Source: a virus
Taxonomy: Duplodnaviria; Heunggongvirae; Uroviricota; Caudoviricetes
IMG/VR virus record: IMGVR_UViG_2585427743_000006
Length of the DNA stretch: 51,476 nucleotides
Direction: 5' to 3' (one strand)
In this document: piece by piece, positions 37,801 through 43,800 of the stretch
Position numbering within the stretch: the stretch's first letter is position 1
How the letters are laid out: every line of letters begins with the position of its first letter
Program-made: the position numbers

Positions 37801-40800
37801 ACGTTTACCAAGGCCATCACGACGGCAACGACGCCAGAATTTATAGGCATTATCAGTGACCCCGTCTTCACCGCCGGAGTCCACCGCCATTGCCATCAGT
37901 CGCATTTGTTGAGAAGGATTGGAGGCCAGCGGCCAGCTTTTATGAAAAACATCCGTCAGCAGGACATCCCAGTCTTCCGGATAGCTGGCCGGATCAATTC
38001 GCTGGCTCTCCCCGTCGCTGTCACCGCGCAATGACTGCGTGATGTTGTAACGATCAATAATCCAGCGTTCGCCACGGCTGCCATAGCCCGTTACCTGAAC
38101 CACAAAACGGCGATGACGTCCCGCCTGCACATCCACTGTCGCCACAAGGAAATTAACGCCATCCGGCACACTGCGGGAAAGAACTGGCTCTGCCCGCTGC
38201 TCAAGCAGTTCACTTTTTCGTTGCTCCATGCTGGCGCGGGGAAGATAAGGTAATCCCCAGTCGGTATTGATAACCGCCCTGAGTGTTTCTTCACTTCCGG
38301 TTGTCTCGTATTCCTGTTCTGCAGTAAGCAGTTTGTAAACGAGTTGCGAGAGTGTCTGGTAAGCAGCTGCCGGACCCTCCATCCAGAATGACGCAATACG
38401 TGAGCGTCGGGGATCACCATAACGACTGCCATCCGCATTGATGGATTCACCATCCCGCAACCAGACCCCACGTCCGTTCAGCTCACGTTTTTGTTCAGGC
38501 ATAATCCGTCCTGAACAGGAAGGACACTGAATATAAGCCGCCTCACTTGCCAGCACGGGATCGGCAATATCACGGAAACCAGCAACCACATCGCCGCAGG
38601 GCTGAAAATACTCACCACAGTGTGGACAGGGCCAGTACCAGCGACGGCGATCACCACGGTTATAGAGCGACAGGATCCCCGTGGTTGGTGGAGCCTCATG
38701 CGGTGAAGTCCGTCGCCATTTCACATCCTTCACATCCCTGCCGGGGGAACTCTCCACCAACGTCATACCGCTGGACATAAATGTGGTGGTACGTTTTGAG
38801 GCAAGAGAGAAAGCATCCCCCTCGCCATCAATATCTTCCGGAAAACGGTCATAATCCGTCAGCGCGACGCATTTATAATCTGATGAGGACATGATATTGA
38901 CTGACGGCCAGCCGATTTTCAGGTAGTTACCAGCAAGGAATGTTCTGTCATAAACGTTGTTGTCATTTTTGTTCGGACTCAGGCGACTGACCACTTCCGG
39001 GCTGACGCGAAACGTTCTGGCGAGTCGTTTTTTGGAGTGTTCGCGGGCTTTTTCCTCCGTCATCTGAATGATCAGCATATCAGCAGGATCGCAAATCACG
39101 TTGTAAATCCCCCAGCCGTCAATCAGGCCGATAGTCTTGCCGGTTCGTGCCGGGCCAACAAATATCACTGCGTCGTATTCACGCGAGGCCAGGCAGTTCA
39201 TCGGCTCAATAACATACGGTGCCACCAGCGGATCCCACGGGACTGAGTTCCCTGCCCCCATGGGCACCCGCATATACTGAGCAACGGCATCAGCAACCCG
39301 CATTCGTCTCGGTGCGCGAAGGATATAACCTGAATCGGTTCGTGCTGCCTTTGCGGTTTCCTGATTCAGCATTACTCCTCCTGCTGTAATTCCTCCTCAT
39401 CATCCGCACCTGCTTCAGTCACCCGCAGGGCTATCTGATCGCGCAGATCATCAATAATGGACTGAACACGGCTCACAGCGGCAGGCTGCAGACCGCAGTC
39501 ACGTTCCAGAATATCCGGTAATGTCTCCAGCACCTGCACGACCGCTTTTGCCCAGATGGCAAACTCCCGTCTGACATCACTGGCCGGAATGAGTTGTGCC
39601 GTTTCCTGTTCGAACTTAAGACGCTCACGTTCAGACTGATACCAGGCTTTGCGCTCATGCGCGTCCATTTCGCCTTCTGCAACCGGCGGTGGCAATGCCA
39701 GAAATGCCGACACAATATCAACCACCCGATAAAGCTTGAGGTTGCTTTCATGCCCCCCTGCAACGGGTAGATTTTGCAGCCTTGCCGCAGCAGTCTGGCG
39801 ATGTACACCTGACAGTGCCGCCAGTTGACTGATATTCAGCGTCAGATTTTTTAACTCTCGATCCATACCCGCTCCAGAATGTTTTAAACATGCATCTCGC
39901 GAACAACTTTAGGCAAACGGTGTTAGTGATGAACAAAAAACAATCAAAATCGACACCATAAAAATAAAACCACTGTAATATCAATCTATTACAGTGGTGG
40001 TGATGACGAATAAAATTTCAAAAACTAGCCTTTTTCCGCGACGCTCCCGCCCCGTGGCAGGCCACCCCACCGGAAGGACCCGCACAAATGAGAGCGTTTG
40101 TCATTAACATTTACAGATAAGATGACGTACATCATTGAAACGCCATTCAGCCATATACCGGCAGCATTCGTAGTTGCACTCCGTAACTCTGCGACTAAGG
40201 TTAAAAACATGGCCCTCTTTTGCCACCGGCAAATCTTCAATGGATTTCCCCTGCCGGTTTTTTATTTTCGTCGATGCATAACATTGCATTTACATCAATA
40301 GCGGCTATTGTCATTAGTATGTTGCATCAATGCATGGGTGGTATTGGCGGTCTTCGCCGGCCGCTTCTGTGTAGCTGCTCCCTGTGACCGGTTTTTTATT
40401 TCTCACATTACAGCAACCCCTTAGAGTGAAGGGCTGCTGTAATGCCTGTTACTCACGAATCAGGCGAGCACTCTTACTATTCATTTCAATACGCGAATAC
40501 TGCGGTTTACCATCAATGATGTCTGTCATTACGAACACCTCACCCGGCTGCAGTTCAACTGCACCTTCCGGTAATTTCATACCGGCAAATACCGGACAAC
40601 CCGGATGACGATCATCTTCTGTTGCTTCCAGCATTGACTCACCAAACCACTCCGTCGTGGCGCGACCATCAGCTGCTTTGTAGTGGATCAAGTACTGGTT
40701 TTCGCCATCCGCATACTGCGCACGGGCTTTAACCTCACCCCATTCATCACTGATACGCATCTCCACCAGTTGAGACAACTCAAACTTAAACGGAGCAGCA

Positions 40801-43800
40801 TCAGCACCAATTACAATCGGTTTGTTTTCTGTTTTTTCCATCATCGTCTCCTGATATCGAAGCCCGTCGCCGCACCGGGCACTGATCAACATTTGAGTAT
40901 TCGCGGCGACAGAAAGAATTTATTTTATTGAGTAGCCACAAACACAGAATTTCATGCTTACCGGACGCTGGCGCATCCTTCATTTTTCAGCAAAATATTC
41001 TGCTCTTACAGGCGATCAGTTCTGCAGACACTGCCGAACACCGTCGACAATTTCACAGACCTGAGACGCGGTATCGAAAAGCTGGCGCGCCTTATCCAGG
41101 CTGACGCACCCCACCAATAAAAAAGGCACCAGTATCGCTACCAGTGCCCGTTTCACCGCCGTTCGCGGCATTCTGTGTGTCCAGTGTTTTCGCGCCATAT
41201 CACCACCAACGCACAGCCCAAATCAGAACAGCGACCGCCACAAGGCGAATTGCAAAGGCCGCAGCCCTTGTCAAATCAAGGCTCGCGGGAGTTTCCATTT
41301 CAATACCTTTCATAATGGACAACCTCAAAAAGAATCTTTTATACTTTCCCACGAGGATTTTCTCCCTACTCACTAATCACAATTTCCCCTTTGACGTGAA
41401 AACTAAAAACCCCGGACTGTTCCCCCAGCCGGGGTTTTGTTTTACTTATCGCTTCAGCTGAAAGTGAGGTCCGTCTTTCAGCGTTTTCCAGTCCCCGCCC
41501 CATTCGATAGCGATCCCCAGCTCTGCGGCAGCCTGCTTAAATGCCTGTGCGATTTTCTCGTACAGAGGCCACTCCCATGACACCTGGCTGCCGATGTAGG
41601 CCACAACATCCACCGCATCACCGGTCAGGTGGCGGCTGTTCATGGTCTGGCTTTTCCCTTCCGCAACCAGCTGTTTCTGGCGATACTTACTGCGCAGGCC
41701 TTCCGTAATACCGAAATCAACCTCCGTCAGCTCCAGCGCACGGCGAACTACAGCAACCAGCTGTGGTTTGACACCCTCCAGATTTTTTTCACTGCGACGG
41801 CTGAATCTGAATTTACCCGGCATATTCACCTCAACAATGGAAAGATTTTTGTGACGTTCCCGCGTGCGTGTATCACCAGCACGCAGAACAGCAGGTTAAA
41901 AAACACTTCCAGCCAGCCCGTTGCTAACGGGCGACCACACAGATAGCTGAGGGGCGCAAAGGCATACAGCAGCATCAGCAGCCAGGCCAGCCATGACACC
42001 AGCGGTTTATGTCTGGAATCACGGCGACGATAAAAAAAGAGCGTCAGCACGATAACCGTGCATAACGCCACATTCAGCAATCCGGGAAGGTTACTTAACA
42101 TTGCCGCCTCCTCCACCCCGCAGGCGGGAGAACACACCGGACACCAGCGATGCAATATCCTGCTGGTGGATGAACGAGAGAATCTTCACCGACACCACCG
42201 AGACCAGCACCGCGCAAAGCGCATCTGCTGATGTACCGTCATACCCTGTTTTTGATGCAATCCAGGCTGACAGCACACGCGCTCCCAGCACGCCGACAAT
42301 AAACGACACCAGAAAATGCGCCACCACGCGCCAGACTGAAAGTGACTGCGGCATCGTTGCCACAAATAACGCCCCGGCGAACGCGCCAAACACAATCCCG
42401 AAATCCATCCCGGTAAACAGCCCGAATACCGTCGCGCCACCCAGCGCCGCAGCCGTGCCGGAACCGGATAAGGGTTCAGACATACTTCCTCCTGAAAATA
42501 AAAAAAGGGCCACCAGCGACCCGTAAAAAAACACCCCGTCAAAGGCACCCGCAGATGCCTTTTGTGTGATGTTATTCAGATTTACGCAGTAAAGGCCGGA
42601 GCACGATCAGCGCCATCGCCACCAGCACACCATCTGCCAGCACTGACATCAGTCGTCCGGTGAAATCCACCATCACTACCAGAAACAACAGGATGACAGC
42701 CAGCACAAGGCGCGCACTTTTCACAGGTACTGCTCCAGCGGCAACTGCAGCGCCTGCGCAATTTTCTTCAGTTGCGCTTCTTCTTCCTGACCGATACCGT
42801 CCTGGTCAGCGATATCCAGACACAGACACAGCACATTCACAGTATCATCAGTATCTGCAACATCAGTCAGCTGACGAAGGGCTTCAGCATTAGCAGAACG
42901 CGGTGGCGCTTCATAACGGGCGCGGATATGAAAAAGGCCCGCCGAAGCGAGCCTGGAAAAATAAGCGTGGCGCGTTGTACTGGATTCGAACCAGTGACCG
43001 ATTGCTTAGAAGGCAATTGCTCTGTCCGGCTGAGCTAACAACGCAGGGTACAGATAATGGACCGCCATCGAGGACTCGAACCCCGCGCAACCAGCTTCGA
43101 AGGCTGGCGCTCTATCCTGATGAGCTAATGGCGGTATGTGATGGTGGCCCTTGCTGGATTTGAACCAGCGACCTGGCGATTATGAGTCGCTCGCTCTCAC
43201 CACTGAGCTAAAGGGCCGGGAGCAGAATAATAATGGTGCGTAATTAATTCTGCAATCTCATCCGTTTCAAACGATTAAATCCTGAACTTCCCTGACTGTC
43301 TGTTCAAAACGTCCGGTCTCCAGCTCAACACCAATCGCACAACGCCCCAGTGCCATCGCCGCTTTTACCGTTGAACCTGAACCCATAAAAAAATCTGCAA
43401 CCAGGTCTCCCGGACGACTGCTCGCGTTGATTATCTGCTGCAGCATTTCTGCCGGTTTTTCGCACGGATGTTTCCCTGGATAGTACTGCACCGGTTTATG
43501 CGTCCAGACATCGGTGTACGGAACCTGCGCCGTCACACCGAAATACCGCCGCAAATTTTTATATTCACTCAGCAGTTCCGTATACTGCCGGTTCAGCTCA
43601 CTGTATGTGCTGACCAGCTGGTGGTGTGGCTTTTCCAGTTCCCCGCGCTGATGTTTTTCTGCCGCAACACGCGCAAACAACGCCTGCAATTTATTGTAAT
43701 CACCCTCGTTCGGTAACTGCCACTGACTGGCACCAAACCAGTGCGAAGCCATGTTTTTCTTTCCGGTGGCTTCCGCTATCTGTTTTGACGTTATTCCCAG

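Follow-up and report, generated by a model that had tools for sequence, protein, structure and literature searches.

Phages T4 and T7 encode inhibitors of the host protease Lon, PinA and Gp4.5, respectively. The lipoprotein gene bor of lambda lies on the opposite strand and is transcribed independently. Phage phiP27 encodes L33 (NP_543085), which belongs to PHROG 1935, a family annotated "function unknown" in PHROGs. HspQ/YccV (PF08755, TIGR02097; PDB 5ycq) acts in the host as a Lon specificity-enhancing factor and an inhibitor of ClpS. HspQ binds both Lon and ClpS, and its recognition by Lon is decided by the acetylation of K96 in the C-terminal tail (PMC6719616). Here, we analyzed a gene of the L33 family on the minus strand of IMG/VR record IMGVR_UViG_2585427743_000006, a 51,476-nucleotide (nt) stretch of caudoviricete DNA (the whole stretch is referred to as the window) with a phiP27-like/lambdoid Escherichia coli prophage. 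The gene lies between the lysis genes and cos, and it is an ordinary, real accessory gene of the prophage. The best-supported reading is that of a cytoplasmic, non-essential protein that is expressed late and has an HspQ-like barrel as its basis. The additional proposal that late in infection this protein modulates host proteolysis as a stable, tail-less factor draws on analogy and is doubtful, and the explanation that combines both parts is evenly balanced between holding and failing.

The L33-family gene and its long and short forms

The open reading frame (ORF) encodes a genuine protein of the phiP27-like/lambdoid prophage. It spans 40892..40449 on the minus strand and counts 147 amino acids (aa) from its first ATG. 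The initial annotation had drawn the gene over this full extent; the gene is present, but its 5′ bound overshoots. RefSeq/PGAP sets the start at 40841 (WP_000415817.1, 130 aa), so the coordinates up to 40892 carry 16 to 17 surplus, non-conserved codons. The 147-aa reading was rejected, as both the PGAP protein and the homologues begin with MEKTENK rather than at the upstream ATGs, and the spacing of the Shine-Dalgarno sequence fits 40841. An alternative ATG at 40844, one codon before this start, corresponds to the roughly 131 aa given initially, an essentially correct size. Homologues fall into 107 clusters of a 90%-identity collection, and the profile of the family is matched by 747 clusters at 50% identity. 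Pairwise ratios of nonsynonymous to synonymous substitution (dN/dS) of 0 to 0.26 against 18 distinct alleles of relatives indicate purifying selection. The protein is acidic, as had been noted, with an isoelectric point (pI) of 4.75, a net charge of about −9, and a grand average of hydropathy of −0.53. Inspection of the sequence found no hydrophobic N-terminus, signal peptide, lipobox, or transmembrane segment. The window is chromosomal DNA of E. coli; its 1.55-kb region from 39900 to 41450 is 100% identical to E. coli strain 203740 (NZ_CP025913), and a scan of viral contigs returned only near-identical E. coli prophages.

The protein matches the hidden Markov model of PHROG 1935 with an E value of 2.5e-69 (residues 2 to 116 against profile positions 1 to 116 of 116), and a tblastn search found 99% identity to phiP27 L33 over residues 1 to 96, with 97% identity to phiP27 in the flanking DNA. 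By sequence identity, the gene is thus the orthologue of phiP27 L33 in a longer, two-domain form. The initial view of an unassigned gene with no recognisable motif holds for Pfam, NCBIfam, and PADLOC, none of which gave a match for the protein or its relatives, and for a PDB sequence-profile search, which returned a single chance match (E value of 1.6); it does not hold for the PHROGs. No characterised L33 or PHROG 1935 protein was found in the literature searched, beyond a spanin census.

The long form carries a 115-nt segment (40449-40563), in place of which the 98-aa short forms and phiP27 L33 have 22 nt. The swap is clean, and the DNA on either side is 93 to 97% identical. The short form is commoner among E. 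coli alleles, and the 130-aa form is found in 62 of the 261 positive genomes. The long form is old. Both domains are present in a 70%-identity relative that occurs in a Yersinia phage and in a phage-plasmid-like element of E. coli. The core, with the consensus FKFxLxQxVxIxxSGExGxVxGRAEYxxxxNxYLxxYxAADGRAxExWWxESxL, can also stand alone, in proteins of about 60 aa, or be duplicated in tandem; both arrangements are found in many Proteobacteria and their phages. Among relatives (proteins P0043 and P0111; P0168 and P0195), some have two barrel copies in tandem, and others have the barrel fused to long, repeat-containing C-terminal regions with no Pfam match. The larger fusion proteins with the domain showed no informative Pfam domain except for a sub-threshold Lcl_C and N-terminal remnants of tail-fibre assembly proteins.

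Resemblance to HspQ and a possible role

AlphaFold2 gave a confident, all-beta model (mean predicted local distance difference test score, 84.9) with an SH3-like barrel in the core and four further strands in the C-terminal extension. As modelled, the product of this allele is a soluble, acidic, all-beta protein that consists of an SH3-like barrel and a small C-terminal beta domain, and the predicted core has the HspQ-type barrel fold. HspQ is the best structural match by two methods. It was the top match in Foldseek (E value of 5e-3; runner-up, 7e-2), while a search of viral folds in BFVD returned only uncharacterised small barrels. An hhalign comparison of the diverse family alignment (142 sequences) with the HspQ family gave a probability of 57.6%, an E value of 1e-4, and a score of 32.6 over 71 columns, compared with scores of no more than 20.6 for 100 column-shuffled HspQ alignments. 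In a second control, a single HspQ sequence scored 27.0 and ten other small beta-barrels scored 9.5 to 13.2. The conserved residues coincide at F20/F6, Q24/Q10, V26/V12, G35/G21, Y50/Y52, G59/G61, W65/Y67, E68/E70, L71/L73, H79-P80/H81-P82, and P83/P85 (L33-family protein/HspQ), and these superposed residues are invariant or nearly invariant in both families. The alignment stops at HspQ residue 86, beyond which the phage protein either goes on as beta strands or ends.

YccV-type barrels bind components of AAA+ proteases (Lon and ClpS in the case of HspQ), and for this reason we propose a link to host proteolysis. The protein would be a cytoplasmic protein-binding module acting late in infection, whose barrel may engage a host AAA+ protease pathway, either Lon or the ClpS adaptor of ClpAP. 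Free of the degradable HspQ tail, it could persist as a stable competitor or modulator, so that late phage proteins would be shielded or protease-triggered responses (e.g., antitoxin degradation) would be kept from firing. A broader version of this proposal is that L33-like proteins, many of whose 747 clusters are stand-alone proteins of about 60 aa, constitute a large, uncatalogued phage-borne YccV/HspQ branch that redirects or blocks Lon or ClpS-ClpAP late in infection, a new class of proteostasis hijackers that may counter protease-triggered abortive infection or toxin-antitoxin systems. We consider this version rather improbable.

Several observations weigh against the HspQ-based reading. 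Neither the Pfam YccV-like model nor the NCBIfam HspQ models matched the protein at an E value of ≤0.1, while an HspQ control scored 116.8 to 205.5 bits against two NCBIfam models; likewise, the families listed at an E value of ≤1 for the 142 diverse relatives do not include PF08755. The hhalign probability is only 58% and drops to 2.5% with the narrow alignment A1. The decoy sequences in the control with ten small beta-barrels were entered by hand. The C-terminal, K96-bearing tail that mediates the recognition of HspQ by Lon is absent, so any link to a protease is by analogy alone, and the genomic context gives no pointer to proteases. Late-only expression is read from a consensus promoter scan, and the close association with spanin or small terminase genes might instead reflect a role in lysis or packaging. 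Because the curated models are unmatched, the narrow alignment performs poorly, and both a loop and the tail of HspQ are missing, the core is best described as HspQ/YccV-like, probably homologous, and outside the family proper. Its barrel is a distant relative of the YccV/HspQ barrel or a near mimic of its structure.

Late-operon position and rival roles

The gene shares its strand with all late genes of the prophage, which lies on the minus strand. In minus-strand order, a Q-type antiterminator, a DNA methyltransferase, three tRNAs, and TerB-like and DUF3927 genes precede the lysis genes (Table 1). In the gene annotation it closes the late lysis block as the final cistron (holin, holin, M15 endolysin, membrane ORF, o-spanin, and the L33-family gene), and cos followed by the terminase genes lies downstream, in agreement with the initial placement between the lysis genes and cos. 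A consensus scan found no sigma-70-like promoter on the minus strand in the upstream spacer of about 172 nt (40845-41015). The shared late strand and the lack of a detectable promoter of its own suggest that the gene would be transcribed from the Q-antiterminated late promoter in lytic growth. The hairpin past the stop codon is followed by an A-run instead of a T-run and is therefore not a canonical terminator. No RNA family was found by Rfam between 39.8 and 41.5 kb. About 390 to 395 nt (40060-40448) without annotated genes separate the gene from cos; this segment is 96 to 97% identical in relatives and contains only short, unannotated ORFs of 61 to 71 aa.

TABLE 1 Coordinates of the L33-family gene, its parts, and the neighbouring features in the window
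Feature	Position	Strand	Remarks
L33-family gene, 130 aa plus stop	40449..40841	minus	phiP27 L33 family / PHROG 1935
Conserved core, residues ~18-85	40587..40790	minus	SH3-like beta-barrel, then D-x-H-P-x-x-P motif; HspQ/YccV-like part
Long-form-specific segment, 115 nt	40449..40563	minus	C-terminal beta extension, residues ~94-130; matches PHROG 8025
Shine-Dalgarno sequence AGGAGA	40847..40852	minus	GGAG core 6 nt before ATG 40841; read directly from sequence
13-bp hairpin, 5 nt past stop codon	40407..40443	minus	read from sequence; absent from terminator-scan output
DNA methyltransferase	43267-44316	minus	upstream of tRNAs and lysis genes
Lysis cassette: Phage_holin_8 holin, Phage_holin_3_7 holin, M15 endolysin	41446..42534	minus	Pfam, PHROG, PGAP
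M15 endolysin	41446-41829	minus	
37-aa ORF, one transmembrane segment	41200..41313	minus	between endolysin and o-spanin genes
o-Spanin lipoprotein, 51 aa, lipobox LLVGC	41016..41171	minus	directly upstream neighbour of the L33-family gene
Approximate cosN	40030..40057		minus-strand sequence GGGGCGGGAGCGTC
Small terminase, DUF1441 / PHROG 141	39372..39866	minus	downstream of cos
Large terminase, GpA-type	37270-39372	minus	after small terminase

The interval between the lysis genes and cos is variable across related prophages. The gene is present in 261 of 5,426 complete E. coli genomes, whereas 2,266 of them match part of the 1.55-kb interval, mainly on the small-terminase side. One prophage with a nearly identical small terminase has cspI-ymcF-ynfR-ynfN-gnsB-DUF1398 in the slot, and in another, Rz is followed by nothing but a 50-aa ORF. 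The gene is missing from prophages whose small and large terminase genes are both nearly identical, and it is thus not shared by all phages with this terminase and cos in the manner of a core packaging accessory (e.g., the HNH of HK97-like phages). In some relatives that carry the gene (loci L134 to L136), a K88-fimbrial-like gene is inserted between it and cos, which locates the true insertion slot between the two. The gene is accessory, being absent from most prophages that share parts of the interval. Variability of this kind had been anticipated in the initial annotation, and given the two genome counts and the alternative genes in the slot, the gene does not represent a conserved family present in all relatives.

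A lysogenic-conversion moron, expressed from the prophage and changing the host phenotype as bor does, would suit the variable slot and the patchy distribution, as well as the guanine-plus-cytosine content of 47.5%, which is below the 53 to 55% of the flanking late genes. Lambda bor-type morons occupy the same variable interval and are likewise non-universal among relatives. The initial annotation had pointed to such cargo. However, this gene differs from bor in its late-strand location, where neither a predicted promoter nor a framing terminator accompanies it, and in encoding a soluble, acidic, cytoplasmic product with no signal peptide or lipobox. In addition, its homologues are often coupled to the preceding late gene, many without any intergenic space, and no defence-system model was matched. 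The variable slot thus stands while the bor analogy is unsupported, and conversion of the host is very improbable. Its behaviour is that of a closing gene of the late lysis block and not of an independent moron.

Homologues are always encoded on the late strand, but their neighbours vary. In lambdoid E. coli prophages, the homologue follows the same small ORFs, whether the endolysin is M15 or GH108 and whether the small terminase is DUF1441 or Nu1. It starts 7 nt past the DUF2570/LysC spanins in Edwardsiella, follows Rz (PF03245) in Salmonella HK97/P27-like prophages, and stands after DUF2514 or Rz and before gpR in P2-like prophages of Enterobacter and Salmonella. Rz-like spanins belonging to four PHROGs precede it in Kluyvera, Pectobacterium, Izhakiella, Yersinia vastinensis, and Edwardsiella anguillarum. 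In HP1-like prophages (Yersinia, Ewingella, and ESSI2), the homologue overlaps the end of a gpM-type small terminase gene far from the lysis genes. Isolated cases are found behind a DNA methyltransferase, an Ant-like gene, or a truncated tail-fibre-assembly gene, and the neighbours of the distant 60-aa versions are mixed. In other phages, the homologue starts 0 to 30 nt past, or overlaps, a spanin or small terminase gene, which leaves no room for a promoter of its own. Collectively, the family is a late-operon accessory that prefers the ends of modules, above all the end of the lysis cassette, and it cannot be classed strictly with either the lysis or the packaging genes.

This preference could also reflect an accessory of the lysis cassette, a cytoplasmic tuner of holin timing or of spanin/endolysin expression or stability that is co-translated with the spanins. 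Family members sit directly behind spanins of at least seven families/PHROGs in lambdoid, HK97/P27-like, and P2-like phages, often at a distance of 0 to 30 nt. In the window the gene follows a phiP27-type o-spanin, and inserted cargo lands downstream, leaving the gene on the lysis side. On the other hand, in the HP1-like prophages and ESSI2, the homologue comes after the small terminase with the lysis genes kilobases away; elsewhere it comes after a DNA methyltransferase, an Ant-like gene, or a tail-fibre assembly remnant; and most phages with the same lysis genes are without it. Library searches revealed neither a membrane segment nor any resemblance to known antiholins or regulators of lysis. 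The protein has neither the transmembrane segment nor the lipoprotein signal of a spanin, and matches to lysis-category PHROGs fell only on its neighbours. We regard a role in lysis as unlikely.

DNA binding by YccV is described in the older literature. A YccV-type "hemimethylated-DNA binding" barrel that works with terminase, or on freshly replicated or methylated phage DNA close to cos, would agree with the resemblance to HspQ/YccV, with the location next to cos and the small terminase gene here, and with the overlap with the small terminase gene in HP1-like phages. A methyltransferase gene is often near or adjacent, both in the window (43267-44316) and at loci L113, L026, L002, and L133. 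Such an accessory of DNA binding or packaging is nevertheless improbable: the protein is strongly acidic, the gene is missing from most phages that share this terminase and cos, and no methyltransferase is found around loci L008 and L020. A functional link to the nearby methyltransferase was rejected on account of this inconsistent co-occurrence among loci.

A component of the virion or its assembly, for instance a decoration protein or a head or tail-fibre chaperone, is hardly to be expected. The gene is always within late structural or lysis operons, decoration proteins are often small beta-barrels, and in-frame fusions to the N-terminal portion of a tail-fibre assembly protein occur (P0057, L002). 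The placement relative to structural genes is, however, inconsistent, and most phages with the same head and tail genes are without the gene. In addition, the fusion looks like an in-frame truncated remnant, and protein P0028 starts at an internal MKREG. In Yersinia phage vB_YpM_44 (L002, 3695-4408; proteins P0057 and P0115), the annotation joins the long-form homologue in frame, as a single ORF, to the N-terminal part of a tail-fibre assembly protein (Caudo_TAP), and this is probably a truncated tfa remnant that is read through into the gene's own start, MKREG.

The 51-aa lipoprotein encoded upstream of the gene is near-identical to the o-spanin of phiP27, a phage listed with a "separated" two-component spanin (Kongari et al. 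2018; PMC6139136). The 37-aa transmembrane ORF may serve as its membrane partner. The transmembrane segment of this ORF lies at the extreme C-terminus, leaving no periplasmic domain. Neither the i-spanin region of phiP27 nor a 93-aa ORF of relatives (locus L014, 5116-5397) has a counterpart in 41172-41446, and the spanin complement looks incomplete. The cos site was placed at approximately 40030-40057 from the genome ends of phages Tritos and mEp460_4F5, which fall at 40052 and 40057. Between cos and the start of the small terminase gene, a perfect 12-bp inverted repeat followed by a T-run (39969-39998, minus strand) may act as a terminator and so insulate the packaging genes in the prophage, or it may be a binding site of the cosB type.

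Further features of the window lie at a distance from the gene. Past the methyltransferase and tRNAs, where phiP27 has stx2e, the TerB-like and DUF3927 genes are found (42572-43217), with no toxin genes. Rfam matches include a sok antitoxin RNA of a hok/sok-type module in the early region of the prophage (47460-47634) and an IS009 RNA that overlaps a tail-fibre assembly gene (16805-17003). The DNA beside the prophage (1-9807) is a mobile antibiotic-resistance region, which contains a group II intron fragment (91-333), a beta-lactamase (507-1367), a sul-type pterin-binding enzyme (2605-3471), a DHFR cassette (3955-4656) adjoining an attI/AAC_AAD_leader match (4415-4496), an integron-type integrase (4586-5599), and a Tn3-family transposase (6841-9807).

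Comparison with described systems

The analysis provides a first structural and evolutionary handle on a common phage family (phiP27 L33 / PHROG 1935) that is without a Pfam model, and places the gene in the late, lysis-side block rather than among classic lysogenic-conversion cargo. If the link to HspQ is functional, phages would have borrowed the fold of a host protease regulator, which would bear on how they protect late proteins and evade protease-dependent defences; if not, the gene is one more small late accessory.

The likeness to PinA and Gp4.5 lies in the proposed logic only, that of a small phage protein interfering with a host AAA+ protease, and the PinA and Gp4.5 genes are early while the L33-family gene is late. 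With phiP27 L33, the gene shares its place after the o-spanin and before the packaging genes. It differs in the C-terminal beta domain of about 35 aa, which phiP27 L33 does not have, and in the downstream region, where phiP27 carries an HNH endonuclease and a different terminase. HspQ is encoded by a chromosomal heat-shock gene, whereas the L33-family gene is phage-borne in a late operon. HspQ has a loop of about 15 residues between strands 2 and 3 that the phage protein is without; the latter has its own 17-residue N-terminal leader and, in this allele, the C-terminal beta domain. The two proteins are alike in the topology of the barrel, in the D-x-H-P-x-x-P motif that follows it, and in their acidity (pI of 4.75 for the phage protein and 4.53 for HspQ).

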